A stretch of DNA of 64,000 bases from contig URLJ01000001.1 in NCBI GenBank assembly GCA_900548675.1, positions 73,855-137,854 of the forward strand, given 5' to 3'. How positions within the stretch are numbered: the stretch's first letter is position 1; every line of letters starts with the position of its first letter. This document shows positions 6,620 to 64,000 of the stretch, one piece after another. The notes beneath the pieces are model-generated. The model worked only from the letters and a program-made list of their open reading frames with translations. It did no database searches and had not been told where the DNA came from. The position numbers were made by a program, and so were the translations under genes. The stretch comes from an uncultured Mollicutes bacterium (GTDB lineage Bacteria > Bacillota_I > Bacilli_A > ML615J-28 > CAG-313).

Positions 6620-9600
6620 TTAGTAGAATAAAAAGTACCAATCGCCGCTTTCTGTTTGTAATTGTTTAAACACGAACGCGCCGTCTTCGCTTTTTGTTCT
6701 ATTACTAATTTTTAATTCGTCATAAATTATTGTTTTTTGTAATTGTGTTTCAGCACCAGAAATTTGAAAAACTGGATTATCCAAATCTGGTTCTTTTATT
6801 GTTTCACCCTCTACTGTTGTTGTTTCCTCTAATTGATATGCCGCAATTTGATTTTCATCAATAAACATCATATTTTGGTCTGATGAAATACTGAAACCCT
6901 TTTCATCCATTCTATATTTTTTAGAATAAGATTCATCTAAATTTTGTGTCCAATAAACACTTGTGCTATCATATTCAAGTTTTAAATCTGCAATTTCAAC
7001 ATTTCCTACAAAATTGCTTGATATTGTAGCTCCACAAATACCAATAATAACTCTAACAGTATCAATGTTAGAACTATTTGATGTATTATCATATAAATTA
7101 TTACTTAAATAATAACTTTTTGTAAAAGGATTGTAAACATAAATTTTGTTAGAACTTGAATTATAACAAATTGTAGTTTCAGCATCAGGCATAGAATTGG
7201 TTTTCGTTTGTGCGTCTGTTGTGCTTGTTGCTGTTTTAAAAGTTTCAATTGAGCGATTATAAGTTGCTGTCACAATTGTTTCTTCTAAAAGGGCGGCCGG
7301 TAATGTAACTAATCTACTATCTGATGCGCTAACAACTCCTTGAACCCCACTTGGACTTACTAAAACAATATTTGAGCCAGTTTGTGGTAAATAAGTTAAT
7401 TCTATTTGACCTTCTTCTGCGACTAAAGTTTCATTTACTTCTTTTGTTACGTGAGCTTCTGGTGTTGCTAAAGGCATTGTTTTATATATATAATCTTGTG
7501 TAAAACTTGCATTAATTTTTTTAATATTTGTTCCCTCGGCTGCCGCGTAGCAATTAATAGGTACATAATATGCATTTGTAATATATGGATTGGAACTACT
7601 TGATGTAAAACTTAATCCATTGGGTTGGTCTATTAAATGTTTATAAAAAACTAAACCAACAAAACAATTTCCTGCAGAAATATTTCCTTTTATTTTATAA
7701 GCCAATAATAAATTTTCTACATTTTCTTTTAAGTCTATTGGTGAACTTAAGATAAAGTCGTATTTAACTTCGTCTGTAGTTTTTGTACGAATTTGGAAAC
7801 TATTACCGCAGACAGTAGCTTTTCTTACTAAAGCTTCTTCATTATAATAAACATTTGAAAAATAATCTTCTTCTAAATTTTTATTTAACCAAAAATCTGC
7901 TTTAATAACTCCACTTGCAACTGCTGTTTTGTGTTGTTGCATAACGCTATTTTTTAATAAATTTACTCCTTTTGTTCTATCAAAAGAAATATCTAATGAC
8001 TCACCAGATAATAACATATTAGAAACAGTTTGTGTTAATGCTTGTGTTTTTTTTTCGTTCTCATCAACCAAAGATACTAAAGTAGTCGCTTGTTGACTAA
8101 CAACACCTAAATCTTCTTTCATTGTTTTTGTATCTGCTATTTCTTGTGCTAGTTTGTCATTAATTGCCGCAATATCATTATTTACTAAATCATTATATTT
8201 TCCAGTTAAATCTCCTTCTACTTGCGTAATTCTATCGTCTGTATCTTCTGGCGCAGGCGTCCAGTCTGTTGCTTGATTACCTTTTTCAATTTTAACTTTT
8301 TTATAAGTATTAACAACGCCATCAGAGCTTCGATAGCCAAGACGTATACCATAACAGTTTGCTGGAACTGTACAATAACCTACCAAACGAGAATATTCAG
8401 TTTTCACTGTTCCTGTTATCCATTGATAACTTGTGCGATTACCTCCTTCAACAGTAGGAAAAAATTCAATTAAACCAGTATTTCCAGTGTACTCGCTTTC
8501 ACCTTTTATATCAAAACTAATTGCCCATTGTTCTCCCGGTTCACATGCAATTAAATTAGTGCTGTTTGCCGTACCATTTAAAGCTTGGGTAAATTCTTTT
8601 AAGCTATCACGTGCGTAATTCCTTGCTCCGATTTGCAAATCATCAATACTATCGACAATACCAATTGTTAAAGTATCTAGCGCATTTGTCGTTCCTCCAG
8701 CCGCATACATTGTACATTTAACTAAATTAGTTGTTTTTGTTGGTGTATAAACTTTTGAACTTTCGTTCGCACTTGAAGTATATTTTGTTGTCCAAGAAGT
8801 TCCGTTTGAACTTTCTTGAATTATAAATCTTCCAGAATAAGCTGTTGATGTTGCACTTGTACCATCTCTATAATATGCACCAAAAGTAATTGTTGCTGGT
8901 GTTAAAGTTCCTTTCATAGAACGAGTAACTGTATTTGCGCTACTTGTTACCCAATAAGTTCTTGCAGTTGTACCATTTGTACCATTTCTACCTACACTAT
9001 AAGAAGTAGAAGTCGTATTATCTGTATAAGTAATTATTGTACGAGTCCATAAATATTGTCCCGCACTTACACTAGGTATTGATGTAACCCAGTCTCCAGT
9101 AGGAACTGTTGTTCCATTTGAAGAAACTTGATAAGTGATTGCAGTTGAACTAATACCTTTGCCTGCAGTACCTGTTTCACCCATTTTACCGATACTATAA
9201 GAAGTACTTGTTGTATTATCCGTATAGGTGATTATTGTTCTAGTCCATAAATATTGACCAGCACTTACGCTCGGTACAGTTAAACTCCATGTACCCGTTG
9301 GTGCGGTTGTTCCTGATGTTCCAACTTGATATGTTACAGTAGTTGAGCTAACACCTTTCCCTGCCGCTCCAGCAGAGCCCGTTGCACCAGTTTGCGCTTT
9401 GCTCCAGCTAAAAGTTTTATTAAATGTCTTTCCAACTACTGTAACTGGAATTGTTAAAACTCCATTATTCGCAATTGATGAAGTTAATGCAGTTGTTACA
9501 GCTACTGTAATTGAAGTATTTGTTTGTCCATTGTTATTAATTGTTGTTGTCATTCCAGCAGAGGGTTTCCCAGATATAGTACCAACTGTAGTTGCTACTT

Positions 9601-44644: not shown

Positions 44645-45081
44645 AGGCTGTCATATTCTCCTTTATAAATTTATATTGTGTCATAGTTGTGTCTCCTTTT
44701 AAGTTTAGTAGACAAGTAATTGTCTATAATTAAAGTATAAGGGAAAGTTGACGAAAAGTCAAGTAGGGGAGTTAGTATTAAAATAAGTGTAATTTCTGAA
44801 AAAAATTTTGGTCGGTAGGTGTAATTTTTAAAATAAAAATTAGTCAGTAGGTGTAATTTCCAGGTGACCCCGATACAATTTTGTCAAAAAGTAAAAGTCC
44901 CAAAACCCTTCCCCCAGTAGGATTTGCGGGCTCGCCTTTGCACCCCTTGTCAGAAAGACAACCGTTTGTCTGAGGTATAGCGTTTGTCAGAAAGTCAAAA
45001 AAAAGTTTGTCAAAAAAACAACTTTGTAATAATTTTGTAATATTGTAATATAAATGTAATGTAAATGTAATGTAAATGTTC

Positions 45082-49049: not shown

Positions 49050-49116
49050 TTATGTTAACTTATCCCGCCGGCGCGAAAACGAACAAATGTTTGGTGTAAC
49101 CTTCAGGTTTACATAA
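49050..49116. repeat. gene-terminal inverted-repeat element D, enclosing a Cheo-box-like site
   Basis: TTATGTTAAC (49050-49059)...CCGCCGGCG...CGAACAAATGTTTG...GTTTACATAA (49107-49116). Confidence 0.6.
49080..49093. promoter_or_regulatory. LexA Cheo-box-like site CGAACAAATGTTTG
   Basis: GAAC-N4-GTTT matches the Gram-positive SOS box CGAACRNRYGTTCG with one mismatch. Confidence 0.4.
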
Positions 49117-52550: not shown

Positions 52551-53111
52551 GAAAATTGTGGCTCCATGTAGAAATACATAGATGAACTGTGGATGAATTC
52601 AGAGGAGGCTAAGTCTTTTGGAAAAGAAAATTATAGGTTATGATGATGTATATACAATAGATACTAATGGTATTGTATATAGAAATGGTAAACCAATGTC
52701 CCCAAGGGATAATGGTATAGGTTATCAGCAAATAGGATTGCGTTTAAATCGCAGACGATACAATGTTTATATTCACAGATTGGTTTGGGAAACTTTTAAA
52801 GGAGATATACCAAATGGATATGAGATTAACCATATAGACCATAATAAACATAATAATAACTTAGATAATTTAGAGTTAGTATCTCACTCTACCAATTTAA
52901 AAAAATCAGTAGAAAGATATGGATACTATGGTTCTATGAATAGACCAAAAGATATGCGAACTTTGAGCCAAGCCGAAGATACATCTTCGGAAGGTGCAGA
53001 GACTACTGGAGAGGTATAGTCCTCTTAATAACCAGTTTAAGTATCCACTACCTAAGTCGTAAGATATGGTAAAGACATAGTCCACTCTATAATGAAAATT
53101 ATAGGTAAGTA
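52551..53111 (+). mobile_element. group-I-like intron carrying an HNH homing endonuclease ORF
   Basis: R-like TTCAGAGGAGGCTAAGTC (52598-52615) and S-like AAAGACATAGTCC (53071-53083) could pair to form P7 (GGCTA/TAGTC). The ORF lies between them, and its RBS GAGGAGG (52602-52608) is embedded in the R element. Confidence 0.45.
52618..53019 (+). CDS. intron-encoded HNH homing endonuclease (TTG start)
   Basis: Layout typical of phage HNH homing endonucleases (HNH_3/NUMOD-like): conserved YIHRLVW, then EINHIDHNKHNNNLDNLELVSHSTN. RBS 9 nt upstream of the TTG start. Confidence 0.55.
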   Translation: MEKKIIGYDDVYTIDTNGIVYRNGKPMSPRDNGIGYQQIGLRLNRRRYNVYIHRLVWETFKGDIPNGYEINHIDHNKHNNNLDNLELVSHSTNLKKSVERYGYYGSMNRPKDMRTLSQAEDTSSEGAETTGEV

Positions 53112-53177
53112 AACCCGAAGGTCGTAGGTTCAAATCCTACTCCCGCAACCAATAGAAGATCATAGAGGTTGGTAAAA

Positions 53178-53459
53178 ATGGCAATTATCTATTATATAGA
53201 CAACAAAGCAAACTGGAAAGGATATGTTGGTTGTTCTAAAACTCCACTATCTCATAGATGGGGGAAACATAAATATTTATTAAGGCATAACCTACATTCT
53301 AACAAGGAACTGCAAGATGACTGGAATAAATATGGAGAGCACAGCTTTAGTGCTTTTGTTATAGAAACCTGCCCAGATAGTAAGATGCTAGAGAGAGAAA
53401 AGTATCATATAAACAGATTACAAACAAATGTCAGAGGGGTTGGGTACAACCAGAAGTAA
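53178..53459 (+). CDS. GIY-YIG endonuclease, catalytic-domain-only (93 aa)
   Basis: IYYIDNKANWKGYVGCS...R...KH...E...N is the classic GIY-YIG motif set. Starts 27 nt after the tRNA-Met 3' exon. No DNA-binding extension. Confidence 0.5.
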   Translation: MAIIYYIDNKANWKGYVGCSKTPLSHRWGKHKYLLRHNLHSNKELQDDWNKYGEHSFSAFVIETCPDSKMLEREKYHINRLQTNVRGVGYNQK

Positions 53460-53748
53460 CTGATTTTTAAGAGGGATAGTTTGGTGGGCACCTCACCATT
53501 AAGAGCTGGTGCTGAATTGGACAACTATTATTTGCTACCAATTATTTGAAAAAAGTTTTAAAAAAGACTTGATTCAAGGTAGCAACATAGTTTATAATAT
53601 AAATGTAAAATGAAAAAGGAAAAATAAAAAAGACTTCTAATCCTTTACCATTTAGCGTAATAGCTCTGGTTTATTAGAAGCAAAAAATATTTATTTTAGA
53701 AAGGGTATCCAATTGGCTGCTATAAGGTTGGATATTAGGGTGAAAATT

Positions 53749-54000
53749 ATGGCTAAAGAAAGATTTAATGTAATGGGAAAAGAACTTACTGCAAATGAAA
53801 AAGCAGTATATGAATTCGTAAGGGACAACGGAGTAGTTGATTACAAGATGGTTGCTGAAAAACTAAATATCAGTCCAAAGAGTGCATCAAGCACACTAGC
53901 AAGACTAGAAGCAACTCATTCACTATTAAAGAAAAATGCTCCAAAAGTTGCTACAACTTATGAAGTAGAAGCTGAAGCTGACGAAGTTGAAGCTGAATAG
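53749..54000 (+). CDS. small winged-helix-like protein, family W paralog 1
   Basis: MAKERFNVMGKELTANEKAVYEFV...SPKSASSTLARLEATHSLLKK aligns with four other copies. Acidic C-terminus. Confidence 0.4.
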   Translation: MAKERFNVMGKELTANEKAVYEFVRDNGVVDYKMVAEKLNISPKSASSTLARLEATHSLLKKNAPKVATTYEVEAEADEVEAE

Positions 54001-54002
54001 TA

Positions 54003-54040
54003 ATAGGAGTATCGGCTTAGCCGAGCTCCTATAATATATT
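54003..54040 (+). terminator. hairpin terminator (weak T-tract)
   Basis: ATAGGAG-TATCGGCTTAGCCGA-GCTCCTAT. Confidence 0.35.
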
Positions 54041-54366
54041 AAGGTTTTTATTCTTCACAATATAAAAGGGGTTGCTTGTGGTTGCCCCAACCAAAAACAT
54101 AAGTGGTGGTAGGTTTGCTCGTTAGGGGCTGCGAGGGTAAATAAAGAACAGCAGAACTGGTTGCATAATACGAGTGGCAAGGCAAGAGCCTTGTCTTTTT
54201 TTTATTTTTTAATTTTAGACTTGACAAACGGTACTTGCATATGATAAAAAAACTTTTTTATTTTTTTTTGCAAAAAAGACTTGACGAGATCCCTTAAAAT
54301 GAATTATAATTATTATAATGGGAGTGATATATATAAAAAAAAAGAAAAATTTACGGAGATGATATT

Positions 54367-54858
54367 ATGTGGAAATCGTATGATGATATATATGAGATAA
54401 GCACTGGTGGTAAGATAAGAAATAAGAAAAGTCCTGATAAGATATTAAAGACATATGTTAATAATTGTGGATATGAGAAATTCAAGGGCCACAATGTACA
54501 TCAGTATGTACATAGAATGGTAGCGGAGACATTCATACCTAATCCATCTGGTAAAGAACAAGTGAACCATAAAAATGGGGATAAGCTGGATAACAGGGCA
54601 GAAAATCTTGAATGGGTAACTCGTAGTGAGAACGTATCTCACGCTTATAAGTGCCTAGGAAGAAAACGTAGTTACTGTGGTTCAAAAGGACATAATGCTA
54701 AAAAGGTATATCAGTATTCATTAGAAGGTCAGCTCCTTACTACCTATAATTCGGTGGGTGCAGCTGCAGAAGCTGTCGGAGGTGCAAGTCCTAACATCAG
54801 CAGATGTTGCAATGGGCATATTAAAACATACAAAAACTTTGTATGGAAAAATGAATAA
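54367..54858 (+). CDS. HNH homing endonuclease (free-standing)
   Basis: YVHRMVAETF and NHKNGDKLDNRAENLEWVTRSEN follow the same pattern as the intron-encoded HNH. Own promoter TTGACG...TATAAT at about 54287-54320. Confidence 0.5.
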   Translation: MWKSYDDIYEISTGGKIRNKKSPDKILKTYVNNCGYEKFKGHNVHQYVHRMVAETFIPNPSGKEQVNHKNGDKLDNRAENLEWVTRSENVSHAYKCLGRKRSYCGSKGHNAKKVYQYSLEGQLLTTYNSVGAAAEAVGGASPNISRCCNGHIKTYKNFVWKNE

Positions 54859-55833: not shown

Positions 55834-56079
55834 ATGGCTAAAACAAAAGAATTATTTAATGTTAGAGGAGTAAACTTAACTGCTCACGAAAAAAATGTTT
55901 ACGACAAAGTAAAGGAATTAGGCACTGTTGACTACAACCAAGTAGCAACTGCTTGTAATGTATCTACTAAGTCTGCTATTGCAACATTAGCAAGATTAGA
56001 AAAAACTCACGGTTTATTAAGAAAAAATGAACCAGTAAAAGTAACTACTTATGAAGTTGCTGATGTAGAGGGCGAATAG
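55834..56079 (+). CDS. small winged-helix-like protein, family W paralog 2
   Basis: MAKTKELFNVRGVNLTAHEKNVYDKV...STKSAIATLARLEKTHGLLRKNEPVKVTTYEV. Confidence 0.45.
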   Translation: MAKTKELFNVRGVNLTAHEKNVYDKVKELGTVDYNQVATACNVSTKSAIATLARLEKTHGLLRKNEPVKVTTYEVADVEGE

Positions 56080-57045: not shown

Positions 57046-57291
57046 ATGGCAAAAACTAAAGAAACTTTTAATGTAAGAGGTGTAGAACTAACTGCACACG
57101 AAAAAAATGTTTATGAAAAGGTTGTAGAACTTGGAAAAGTTGACTATAATCAAATTGCTACAAGTTGTAATGTAAGTCCTAAAAGTGCGATAGCAACACT
57201 TGCTAGACTTGAAAAAACACACGGACTTCTAAAGAAAAATGAACCTGTAAAGGTTACAACTTACGAAATCGCCGAAGATATAGAGGACTAG
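57046..57291 (+). CDS. small winged-helix-like protein, family W paralog 3
   Basis: MAKTKETFNVRGVELTAHEKNVYEKV...SPKSAIATLARLEKTHGLLKKNEPVKVTTYEI. Confidence 0.45.
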   Translation: MAKTKETFNVRGVELTAHEKNVYEKVVELGKVDYNQIATSCNVSPKSAIATLARLEKTHGLLKKNEPVKVTTYEIAEDIED

Positions 57292-57320: not shown

Positions 57321-57334
57321 CGAACAAATGTTCG
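57321..57334. promoter_or_regulatory. LexA Cheo-box, perfect match CGAACAAATGTTCG
   Basis: Exact fit to the Gram-positive SOS box consensus CGAAC-N4-GTTCG. Confidence 0.5.
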
Positions 57335-57465
57335 CTTTTGGCCCCCCCAAAAAAAATTAAAAAAATTACAAAAAACTATTGACTTTCACTTGCATTTTTG
57401 CTATAATTATGTTAGAGGTGGAGGAGAGCCCCTTATAAAAAAGATCTTCCTTTAGATCATCTGAT

Positions 57466-59141: not shown

Positions 59142-59238
59142 AGAAAGTTAAAAAAAATTAAAAAACTTTTAAAAAAGTATTGACTTTAATCTAATAAAGT
59201 GGTATACTTAATATGTAATCAAGAAAGGAATGAAAAAA

Positions 59239-59601
59239 ATGAATTATAGAAACTTTAAAATTGAAATGGAAGAAAAGGACTTAAAGAAAACAAACTTAAT
59301 CTATAAATGGTTAATAACTATGAAAGATGGAAAAGTTGCTACTTATGTTGGAATATCAACAAGACCACTTGATGAAAGAACAAAAGAACACATAAGAGAT
59401 AAAAGAACATATTTTGATAAGTTCTTAACTGAAAATGAAAACAATATCAAAAGTATTAAAATTGAGGTTGTAAAAGAGTTAAAAAGAAACTTTAAAGATA
59501 TGAAAACACAACTTGAAAAAAGAGAAACTAAACTTATAATAAAAGATAAGTTAGAAAATGCTTTTAATCTTAATAGTAAAATTGATAAAAGATTTGCATA
59601 A
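59239..59601 (+). CDS. GIY-YIG-like endonuclease (divergent)
   Basis: LIYKWLITMKDGKVATYVGIS...R...EH fits the GIY...YIG...R...H/E spacing loosely. Confidence 0.3.
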   Translation: MNYRNFKIEMEEKDLKKTNLIYKWLITMKDGKVATYVGISTRPLDERTKEHIRDKRTYFDKFLTENENNIKSIKIEVVKELKRNFKDMKTQLEKRETKLIIKDKLENAFNLNSKIDKRFA

Positions 59602-59780: not shown

Positions 59781-60026
59781 ATGGCTACAAAAAAAGAATT
59801 ATTTAATGTAAAGGGTGTTGAAATGACAGCACACGAAAAAATGGTTTTTGATAAGGTTGTTGAACTTGCAAGACCAGTAAGTTATAAGGAAATTGCAAAA
59901 GAGTGCAACATTAGTGAAAAAAGTGCTTGTGCTACACTTGCAAGATTAAATGCTACAAAGGGAGTTTTGAAGAAAAACGAACCTATCAAAGTTACAACTT
60001 ATGAAATAAATGAAGATATCGATTAA
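59781..60026 (+). CDS. small winged-helix-like protein, family W paralog 4
   Basis: MATKKELFNVKGVEMTAHEKMVFDKV...SEKSACATLARLNATKGVLKKNEPIKVTTYEI. Confidence 0.45.
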   Translation: MATKKELFNVKGVEMTAHEKMVFDKVVELARPVSYKEIAKECNISEKSACATLARLNATKGVLKKNEPIKVTTYEINEDID

Positions 60027-60874: not shown

Positions 60875-61378
60875 ATGAGAAAAGCCGATAACCTACCTAT
60901 TAAATGGGTGTTAGATATGGACGACACACTAGCACACTTTCACGAACAAAAAAACGCACTTGAAAGATTTGCTACTGAAAAAAACTTCTTTAATATTTTG
61001 AAACCTAGTAAAATGACAAAGTTTATCAAACAACTTGTTGAACGCAACGAACTTGACGCAAAAGATATTTTTATTGTTAGTGCTTCACCTAATGAACAAG
61101 CCGACAAAGATAAACTACAATGGATTGAAAGACACTTGCCTGAAATACCAAAAAGTAACATTATGTTTACAAGACTTGGAGAAAATAAAGCCGAATTGTT
61201 TATCAATAAATACCACTTATCAAAAGATGACTTCAAGTATTTTATGCTAATTGATGACTACACAAAAAACCTTATTGAGTGGAAAAACTTTGGTGGAATT
61301 GCTAAAAAGTACATCAATGAATACAACAACACAACAAAGAACTATCTTAACTACAACATCAGTACAATAGTATTATAA
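60875..61378 (+). CDS. HAD-superfamily 5'(3')-deoxyribonucleotidase-like protein (paralog 2)
   Basis: DMDDTLAHF (HAD motif I). Collinear with the 47314-47790 product (ISASPN, WIEKYL/WIERHL, GENKAE, LLDDYTKNL/LIDDYTKNL). Confidence 0.5.
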   Translation: MRKADNLPIKWVLDMDDTLAHFHEQKNALERFATEKNFFNILKPSKMTKFIKQLVERNELDAKDIFIVSASPNEQADKDKLQWIERHLPEIPKSNIMFTRLGENKAELFINKYHLSKDDFKYFMLIDDYTKNLIEWKNFGGIAKKYINEYNNTTKNYLNYNISTIVL

Positions 61379-61391
61379 ATGATAAATCAAA

Positions 61392-61417
61392 AGACTAATA
61401 ACAAAGTCTTTTTTATT
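61392..61417 (+). terminator. intrinsic terminator
   Basis: AAGACT-aataaca-AAGTCTT followed by T6. Confidence 0.5.
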
Positions 61418-61428
61418 ATAATAACTAT

Positions 61429-61500
61429 AACACAAACAACACAAACACAAACACAAAGTCAAACACAAACAACACAAAGTCAAAGACAAAGTCAAACCAA
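61429..61500 (+). repeat. CA-rich microsatellite-like tract (ACACAAAC / ACAAAGTCAA units)
   Basis: Generates the low-complexity TQTQSQ track ORF 61379-61579, judged non-coding. Confidence 0.5.
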
Positions 61501-61733
61501 AATACTTAAAACACTATCTGTACCACCTAGCATAGCACGATACGAACAAAACGGAACAAAAAGACCAATTATATTATAAAGATAAAACACGCCTAAAAAC
61601 GCCCTTAAAATGCGTCTAGTGGTGTATTAAAAAAATAGGGTTGGATCGATAGGAAATAAAAAAAGACTTTTAGAAATTAAAAAGTCTTTTGCTACAAACT
61701 TATGTTTGCTATTTCTTGCAAGTTGCCAAACAC

Positions 61734-61747
61734 CGAACAAGTGTTTG
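61734..61747. promoter_or_regulatory. LexA Cheo-box-like site CGAACAAGTGTTTG
   Basis: GAAC-N4-GTTT. Confidence 0.4.
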
Positions 61748-61790
61748 AGTCTTAGCATTCTAATCCCGAGAGTGCCAACATAAACACGAA

Positions 61791-61805
61791 CGAACAAGCG
61801 TTCAG
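61791..61805. promoter_or_regulatory. LexA Cheo-box-like site CGAACAAGCGTTCAG
   Basis: GAAC-N4-GTTC with both half-sites perfect. Confidence 0.45.
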
Positions 61806-61829
61806 CTGAAGGGGGGATATGTTTAGTAA

Positions 61830-61850
61830 TGATACGCCTGGGTGCGTTGT
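61830..61850 (+). repeat. conserved 21-nt motif copy 7 (TGATACGCCTGGGTGCGTTGT)
   Basis: Direct sequence match. Confidence 0.5.
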
Positions 61851-61865
61851 TATGGGTGCATGCGT

Positions 61866-61980
61866 CCTATACGAAATCACATATTCAATTTTCTGTACCT
61901 ATACGAAATCACTTACTCAATTTCTGCTAGTTCACTCACTCAATTTCTCATTCCCGAAATCACTTACCCAGTTTCTACTT
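61866..61980. repeat. four iteron-like direct repeats (~30-bp period; core ATCACTTACTCAATTTCT)
   Basis: CCTATACGAAATCACATATTCAATTTTCTG, CCTATACGAAATCACTTACTCAATTTCTG, TTCACTCACTCAATTTCTC, CGAAATCACTTACCCAGTTTCTAC. Confidence 0.6.
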
Positions 61981-62259
61981 CTCGGGCTCTCCCTTTAGTA
62001 TTTTCAGAATACTTTCCTCTCTGTGTATAGCTATGTTACATTTTTCGTAAGCGCCTTGGCTATCATTTTCACAAAAAGTAATTCCTCTTTCAAGTTCATG
62101 AACTGCTTTCGCTATTATATCTTTCAATTCTTGGTTTTGTCTAGTCAAAATTCTTACTTTTCTTTCCAAGTCTTCTATTTTTTCATTTATTTGATAACCG
62201 CTAGCTACATCTCCATCAGGACTTGTGACTAAACATCCAGATTCATAATCATAAAACAT
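61975..62259 (-). CDS. hypothetical protein with coiled-coil segment
   Basis: 94-aa ORF. Last gene of the leftward operon. Confidence 0.35.
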   Translation of the reverse strand: MFYDYESGCLVTSPDGDVASGYQINEKIEDLERKVRILTRQNQELKDIIAKAVHELERGITFCENDSQGAYEKCNIAIHREESILKILKGEPEK

Positions 62260-63943: not shown

Positions 63944-64000
63944 TTCTTCACTCCCTGTTAGTTAAGACTAACACCAATTATTGCATATCTATATCCTAAA

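Follow-up and report, generated by a model that had tools for sequence, protein, structure and literature searches.

The window, by which we mean the whole 64,000-nucleotide stretch analysed here, has a GC content of about 30% and comes from a large Firmicutes phage. Its late operon of 43 kb (terminase, head and tail genes) occupies 2-44.6 kb on the - strand and is followed on the + strand by an early region (45-61.4 kb), in which five tRNAs and over 20 strong sigma-A promoters lie, and from 62 kb onward by a block of small genes that lies again on the - strand. The large terminase (TerL) of the window showed 45% identity to that of Geobacillus virus E3 and 34-38% identity to proteins of Enterococcus, Brevibacillus and Bacillus phages, one of which is annotated as 'putative protein YonF', the name of the SPbeta terminase. 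The Pfam families YonB, YonD_N and YonG_N were likewise found among the called genes of contigs matching the window.

The locus of interest lies where the early genes and the - strand module meet, as an earlier reading made from the sequence alone had proposed: a + strand NT5C-like ORF ends at position 61378 and a - strand ORF of 94 amino acids ends at 61975. The early unit is closed immediately after the NT5C-like gene by a + strand hairpin and T-run terminator (61379-61422), an inverted repeat that is kept in relatives. Beyond it come, on the + strand, an A/C-rich tandem repeat of ACAAAC/CAAAGT units (61429-61501; TRF period 33, 2.2 copies), with A/C-rich tracts occupying the same position in relatives, and a conserved block, AAAACGCCTAAAAAYGMCCTTAWA, whose A-tracts recur every 11 nt (61583-61612; TRF period 11), which could be aligned in eight lineages. 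A second hairpin (61659-61690), preceded by an A-run and followed by a T-run, is a bidirectional terminator, stronger on the - strand, that shields the core of the element described below from the early-gene side.

The core starts with palindromes of the SOS (LexA/Cheo) type. The two Cheo-like sites reported ahead of the repeats are present at 61734-61747 (CGAACAAGTGTTTG, with a perfect CGAACAAGTGTTCG at the same site in relatives) and at 61791-61804 (CGAACAAGCGTTCA, conserved), and they are joined by a third, weaker palindrome, CAAACTTATGTTTG, at 61696-61709. The pattern CGAACNNNNGTTYR has seven matches in the window against 0.09 expected, the sites at 61734 and 61791 included; the boxes, putative sites for host LexA, fit the Firmicutes consensus CGAACRNRYGTTCG above chance. 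The G6 tract at 61811, the only run of at least six G on the + strand of the window, opens a G-run and TTTAGTAA motif (61811-61829, +) whose family consensus is GGGGGG(T)GGGTTTAGTAA and which is kept in about 30 loci. Next to it lies the seventh copy of a 21-nt motif (61831-61850, +), found where the sequence-only reading had put it; all seven copies in the window are on the + strand, against 0.01 expected. This copy is a clade-specific filler, and other lineages have another SOS box in its place. The anchor GCGTCCTATACG (61861-61873, +) follows 44-46 nt past the end of the G-run and marks a recombination breakpoint between lineages. The flank of the repeats had also been described as AT-rich, which was an error, since 61700-61860 is 43-50% GC and is the most GC-rich non-coding stretch nearby.

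The four direct repeats claimed at 61866-61980 are real and run from 61872 to 61979 on the + strand, with a spacing of 32, 23 and 28 nt. The unit is 25 nt long, its four copies share 76-88% identity with the reference unit, and a 17-nt core, TCACWYAYTCAATTTCT, starts at 61877, 61909, 61932 and 61960. A stricter core, GAAATCACTTACTCAATTTCT, allowing at most three mismatches, gave two matches against 0.00 expected and occurs nowhere else in the 64 kb. Repeat 1 (61872-61896) is fused to the anchor and is the sole unit found in all relatives. Repeat 2 (61904-61928) arose with it from a 32-nt tandem duplication (CCTATACGAAATCAC...) whose halves, of which the two repeats are parts, are 92% identical; it is missing in L001, L002 and L005. 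Repeat 3 (61927-61951) is missing in L003, L008, L009 and L010, and repeat 4 (61955-61979) overlaps the stop codon of the 94-aa ORF. A small ORF spanning the repeats (61819-61998) was considered and set aside for want of conservation and because none of the repeat periods is a multiple of three.

The array is unstable even among close relatives, that is, contigs 95-100% identical to the window (L001-L010, L043-L046 and L398-L405). Four units are present in the window and in L004, L006, L402 and L405, three in L001, L002, L005 and L400, two in L003, L008, L009 and L010, and a single one in L043, while L033 has one unit and a fragment. The copy of the 21-nt motif is replaced by a variant in L002, L043, L046 and L398. 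The 94-aa coiled-coil ORF (61975-62259, -), which is the last gene of the - strand module, also sits at a variable cassette position and is deleted in L033 and replaced in L038 and other lineages.

For the wider comparison we used a set of about 30 related metagenomic and viral contigs, in which the distant lineages had been gathered through homologues of a 114-aa - strand protein, one MAG contig, and viral contigs anchored on TerL or on the motif; a search of viral contigs with the repeat pattern returned chance matches only. A common order emerged: zero to four SOS-like boxes (one to four in most loci, many of them perfect), GGGGGG(T)GGGTTTAGTAA, a filler, the anchor GCGTCCTAYACGAAATYACA or a near variant, and one to five direct repeats. 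SOS-like boxes are enriched 34-fold within the elements, at 10.6 per kb as compared with 0.31 per kb over the loci as a whole. In every locus of the 'B' arrangement defined below, 44-46 nt lie between the end of the G-run and the anchor, and the L385 clade keeps the same register, even though the filler is unrelated across lineages and consists of the 21-nt motif, another SOS box, or neither. The repeats vary by lineage in sequence, in period (12-51 nt) and in number while retaining a loose core, and the first unit, linked to the anchor, is the only one invariably present. More than 15 lineages, with TerL proteins 33-55% identical, keep the order and the orientation of the element, which lies 2.5-5.5 kb upstream of TerL and whose succession of G-run, anchor and repeats is aimed at the terminase operon in every relative. 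Two arrangements were found. In the 'B' arrangement, to which most lineages and every close relative of the 53-64 kb part belong, element and operon are kept apart by a 3-kb module whose small genes lie on the opposite strand, and in the 'A' arrangement the element directly adjoins the late promoter.

The comparison of L029 with L074 shows how the variable part is delimited. Both flanks are 83-88% identical, and a central 1.5 kb comprising two to three - strand genes and the repeats has been swapped, with one of the breakpoints falling exactly at the anchor, which places the repeats in a hypervariable zone with a conserved boundary at its start. L029, together with L072, also has an additional hairpin on the side of the - strand module. 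We consider it well supported that the supposed iterons are facultative duplicates of one conserved site, forming the distal arm of a rigid, bipartite element flanked by LexA boxes. The whole is a composite of about 170-280 bp made of one to four LexA-type palindromes, the G-run and TTTAGTAA, a spacer of 44-46 bp, the anchor GCGTCCTAYACGAAATYACA, and zero to four extra copies of the last part, and we are highly confident in this structural description. As judged from the sequence comparisons, it is a conserved, multi-part, terminator-flanked putative cis-element in many related phages, which lends support to the suggestion of a control hub made in the sequence-only reading, and it is a hallmark of the approach to the terminase and head operon in uncultured SPbeta-related Firmicutes phages. 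Among cultured phages, Geobacillus virus E3, the nearest relative by terminase, lacks the element, and a DNA similarity search of 50,697 phage records gave no match to the region or to a related copy of the element.

A second copy of the element lies in the window itself, inverted, at 44734-44960 (-; about 44.76-44.96 kb), directly upstream of the window late operon and thus in the A arrangement. It consists of the G-run GGGGGAAGGGTTTTGGG, 39 nt from G-run to anchor, GGGGTCACC, and three copies of GAAATTACACCTA at a regular spacing of 32 nt, and is followed by a TTGACT-17-TATACT promoter and by the first late-operon gene, encoding 426 amino acids. Six of the ten window matches to the shared core GAAATYACWYMYWY fall within the two arrays. 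The two copies are 17 kb apart and each points to its own operon. The 144.6-kb contig NODE_71 carries both, in the order window late operon, early region, element, - strand module, and a second, divergent late operon with 25-41% protein identity to the first. The B-type contigs of about 131 kb, in turn, share sequence with the window only from 53.4 kb onward; the one 131-kb IMG/VR contig checked for terminases has a single terminase, and four further B-type contigs, examined over their ±10-kb loci, have one copy of the element each. The window may thus be a recombinant or an assembly chimera across a shared 10 kb, which affects any argument from two copies in one genome and leaves the anatomy of the element untouched.

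In regards to function, the best explanation at hand is that the element is a cis-acting site of the late operon, most likely for the initiation of packaging (pac or cos type), to which we assign a probability of about 0.3. The four repeats would be a recently expanded array, unstable in copy number, of one conserved putative protein-binding site; the packaging machinery would recognise or cut the constant part, formed by the G-run and the anchor at their fixed distance, while the reiterated units, on the side to be packaged first, would help as additional sites of binding or bending. Both the binding of protein to the units and packaging as the process served are inferred, the latter from the linkage to the terminase operon in a fixed orientation, from the fixed internal spacing despite unrelated filler, and from the position of the reiterated sites on the operon side. 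The second, inverted copy points the same way, since it adjoins the promoter and the first gene of the window late operon and is aimed at it. Packaging is further favoured by the hairpin-shielded core, by the absence of a conserved sigma-A promoter inside it, and by the lack of any signal of RNA structure: Rfam, at gathering and at permissive thresholds, returned only tRNAs elsewhere in the window, RNA folding of the two strands gave z-scores of -0.33 and -0.64, like those of shuffled sequences, and an alignment fold of the seven contexts of the 21-nt motif gave no consensus pairs.

Known packaging sites offer precedents. In lambda cos, the conserved cosN is followed by reiterated R sites on the side of the terminase genes. 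Lambda cos (cosN and the R sites of cosB) and SPP1 pac (pacL-pacC-pacR) resemble the present element in being unique, orientation-fixed sites that head a terminase operon, with a conserved part at set distances from reiterated sites on the operon side and with phased A-tracts nearby. The element differs from both in its LexA boxes, in the 3-kb opposite-strand module that usually intervenes, and in repeats that do not co-vary with the terminase side. The packaging reading also draws on SPbeta, whose pac site was placed by restriction analysis in yonP-yonR, at the head of the late operon (PMC8270828), and on the architecture of SPP1 pac, a site that extends over the late promoters and the beginning of gene 1 and in which the regions bound by TerS flank the cut site (PMC6316719).

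Several observations nevertheless count against packaging. The small terminase (TerS) was not identified, and the 3-kb opposite-strand module stands between element and operon in most lineages. In L029 and L074 the repeats travel with the swapped 1.5-kb cassette and not with the terminase side, and since that side is about 83% identical while the repeats are wholly different, co-variation between the repeats and the genes of the terminase side is lacking. It would be unusual for a pac or cos sequence to be conserved between phages whose TerL proteins share 33% identity, and we know of no role for LexA-type boxes in packaging. Two oppositely oriented pac sites, if the 144.6-kb contig is real, would also be awkward. 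In 13 of about 42 long contigs the ends cluster ahead of the late operon, an ambiguous observation to which we give no weight: provirus trimming, low complexity or the variable repeats could each be the cause.

The SOS boxes would be better accounted for if the element were a LexA-gated, non-canonical promoter with a leader for transcription in the late direction, a reading that lacks a demonstrable promoter and that we regard as possible and somewhat doubtful. A phage sigma factor or RNA polymerase would then use the G-run and TTTAGTAA as its promoter, with the flanking LexA boxes as the operators of that promoter and with the anchor and repeats inside the early transcribed leader. Transcripts would, in most lineages, run antisense through the 3-kb - strand module into the terminase operon. 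The boxes, on both sides of the G-run motif, match CGAACRNRYGTTCG, many of them perfectly, and show the 34-fold enrichment given above. The L385 clade has one box between TTTAGTAAAA and a TATATAA resembling a -10 box, possibly a promoter with LexA in its spacer. The motif is strongly kept across divergent phages with its spacing fixed, as a promoter architecture predicts, no terminator-like site was seen between element and operon through the opposite-strand module, and the first late-operon protein matches a PHROG family annotated 'sigma factor'. In SPbeta itself seven SOS boxes are present, some of them bound by LexA in vitro, and yonI lies in reverse orientation upstream of yonH-yonF inside the yonP-bhlB cluster, which a review describes as one polycistronic mRNA made by YonO (PMC8270828).

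Against such a promoter, no conserved sigma-A promoter was found inside the core in the window clade or in most lineages, and no YonO homologue in the window or in the collected relative sequences. The repeats of L029 are followed by a hairpin and T-run reading in the same direction, and the motif occurs only once per late operon, so that there is no family of promoters for comparison. The SOS-linked lifestyle is moreover putative, since no integrated prophage copy was found among 185,579 reference genomes, the sole genome match being the 6.7-kb MAG contig. The boxes share with the SOS boxes of SPbeta and Bacillus (Cheo box, CGAACRNRYGTTCG) the same 14-bp consensus and their clustering in intergenic DNA; those of the window clade differ in bracketing the G-run motif and in overlapping no recognisable sigma-A promoter. 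The MrpR operator of SPbeta (SPBRE), compared by description and not by sequence, is likewise a short, repeated, intergenic regulatory element, to which one may liken the SOS-like boxes of the early region and its 21-nt motif. SPBRE differs in being placed within promoter regions, and an MrpR-like gene was not identified here.

The instability of the array raises the question of whether the extra repeats matter at all. Only the anchor-linked first unit, or only the core of G-run and anchor, might be functional, the remaining repeats being neutral products of slippage in a hypervariable zone. The range of one to four copies among genomes 95-100% identical, the differences of period and sequence in every lineage, the lineage breakpoint exactly at the anchor, and the deletion or replacement of the adjoining gene in relatives would all be expected under neutrality. 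On the other hand, nearly every lineage independently keeps at least two units, with a common core and in the same orientation, and the second copy in the window is also reiterated, with its regular 32-nt spacing. Such recurrent reiteration suggests either selection for it or a site-specific mechanism that generates it, and we regard neutrality of the extra repeats as rather unlikely.

The sequence-only reading had suggested a replication origin. The repeats would then be iterons bound by a phage initiator, and opening or priming might be aided, through an R-loop, by the early transcripts or by the G-run. Four direct units in the same orientation, with a 17-nt core, do lie in a non-coding segment bracketed by terminators beside variable accessory genes, the repeats co-vary with the adjacent cassette of fast-evolving proteins, and the G-run is on the non-template strand for transcription in the early direction. 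The arrangement also resembles SPP1, whose oriR is a non-coding segment bracketed by transcription signals beside moron genes and whose two origins, of like organisation, are about 13 kb apart (PMC6316719), as compared with 17 kb between the two window copies. Direct repeats in bracketed non-coding DNA near accessory genes, in two copies, are common to the element, to SPP1 oriL and oriR, and to lambda-type iteron origins; the element differs from these in having no AT-rich unwinding element and no initiator gene, in its irregular phasing, and in its unstable copy number.

By most of the marks that would place it among such origins, the element falls short. The spacing is irregular, at 32, 23 and 28 nt here and 12-51 nt elsewhere, close relatives carry as few as one repeat, no DnaA box with at most one mismatch was found in 61379-61990, and the flank, as noted, is 43-50% GC. 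The position and orientation of the element are tied to the terminase operon and not to replication genes. Scans of the neighbouring genes (PHROGs, Pfam, NCBIfam), a PDB sequence search with an 89-aa protein and a fold search with a 228-aa protein revealed no Rep, initiator or helicase-loader fold. The AF2 model of the 228-aa protein (pLDDT 76) gave no PDB fold match with Foldseek, and the family of this protein is absent from several lineages in which the element persists. The 89-aa protein, conserved and on the early side, had no family match (Pfam, PHROGs, NCBIfam), and its AF2 model, a low-confidence helical hairpin, was uninformative. This protein is about 93% identical (by eye, from an alignment) between two lineages with wholly different repeats, and thus does not co-vary with the repeats. 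The sequence-only reading would have counted a lack of conservation in related phages against the origin, and this applies by half: position and a core are kept, whereas number, period and sequence are not. An origin is decidedly unlikely.

It is also conceivable, if quite improbable, that the element with its G-run and anchor acts as a late switch of a novel type in SPbeta-related gut phages. A promoter independent of sigma-A, or one combined with a packaging signal, would be clamped by host LexA on both sides; upon DNA damage it would fire towards the terminase operon and silence the intervening accessory-gene module by antisense transcription, with the variable array tuning the switch. A centromere-like partition site of a plasmid-prophage, its array bound by an adaptor of the ParR, TubR or ParB type, is very improbable: centromere arrays tolerate copy-number variation, small winged-helix genes are abundant in the early region and no integrated prophages were found, but no ParA, ParM or TubZ homologue was noticed among the scanned ORFs, no adaptor gene adjoins the array, and the linkage to the terminase operon would be left unexplained. 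As for other identities, an attP site is unlikely, there being no integrase nearby and no genome match other than the MAG contig, and a ParB parS site and an RTP Ter site were ruled out on the order of their half-sites and the length of their spacers. The anchor may resemble the nic sites of MOBQ oriT.

The SPbeta-like phages are a model group in which, to our knowledge, the origin, the pac sequence and the late promoter are undefined at the sequence level. The array of so-called iterons is not a fixed origin array. The element to which it belongs is conserved and easily recognised, by a G-run, 45 bp, GCGTCCTAYAC, and LexA boxes on the flanks. It provides a concrete candidate site and, in uncultured relatives, a landmark by which the head of the late operon can be located.

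In most lineages the core repeat-bearing control element is preceded on its 5′ side by two further sequences, a strand-asymmetric microsatellite composed only of A and C (61429-61501 in the window) and a conserved block of 11-nt periodicity, GCCTAAAAA/GCCCTTAAAA (61583-61612). The 21-nt motif GATACGCCYGGRTGMGTTGT, which the window has in common with related IMG/VR contigs, occurs seven times (56272, 56354, 56405, 57466, 58587, 59121 and 61831), every copy being on the + strand. The copies lie in short GC-rich non-coding islands, 3′ of strong promoters, and folding an alignment of the seven contexts gave no consensus RNA fold. Additional SOS-like boxes are found in the early region at 49080, 56105 and 57321-57348, directly 3′ of terminators. 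The perfect palindrome at 57321 adjoins a C7 run, and the two reproduce on a small scale, in inverted orientation, the 'G-run - CCAAAAG - SOS box' order seen in the element of the related contig L280.

The divergent region separating the window's late operon from the early genes (44,734-45,080) carries two arrays in addition to the element's second copy, one of four GTTTGTCAGAAAGTCAA units (44879-45021) and one of 3.3 TGTAATGTAAA units (45044-45079). Promoter-like sites are also commoner there than expected by chance, with 10 against 3.4 in shuffled sequences. Further into the early region, between 46,200 and 60,560, small early genes have sigma-A promoters close to the consensus (TTGACW-17-TATAAT) upstream of them. 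These promoters number more than 20, and each has phased A6-8 tracts on its 5′ side which look like UP elements. The same region contains four winged-helix paralogues of 81-83 aa (53743-53994, 55834-56079, 57046-57291 and 59781-60026), all of them with a promoter of their own. One pair is contained in duplicated 239-nt cassettes, and a terminator and an SOS-like box come after each cassette. Several free-standing genes of homing-endonuclease type (HNH_3, GIY-YIG and HNH_3-NUMOD1) are dispersed among the early genes (52618-54858 and 59230-59601), and their presence varies between otherwise identical contigs (L011 versus L012).

Several viral contigs of 130-140 kb have an end that falls inside the repeat array or G-run 5′ of their late operon, or a few bases away from it (L311, 1-90; L358, 1-25; L298, 1-60). 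The end of L311, for instance, falls inside an array of at least five GTGAATTTTAAAAAGGTA units, and L358 starts 13 nt 5′ of a G8 run. Such contigs may stop at genuine genome termini, or their assembly may have broken off at variable repeats. In five viral contigs of the B-type, in which a 3-kb opposite-strand module separates the element from the late operon, the ends form two tight clusters just past window position 64,000 (8640-8860 in the related contig L001), in the stretch from which the - strand module and the second late operon diverge. At a GC-rich hairpin (AATAATACTCGCTTCGCAAGC...) the ends of two of these contigs lie no more than 1 nt apart. The clusters may mark a genuine end or be an artefact of trimming.

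The 144.6-kb contig NODE_71 has two divergent terminase/portal/head modules, one on each side of the early region, which share 25-41% protein identity. The first corresponds to window 2,000-44,644 and the second lies beyond 64,000 (L001, 1-8495; L401, from 20468 onward), whereas its relatives of about 131 kb have a single such module each. Either NODE_71 belongs to a recombinant phage, or it is a chimeric assembly joined near 53.4 kb.
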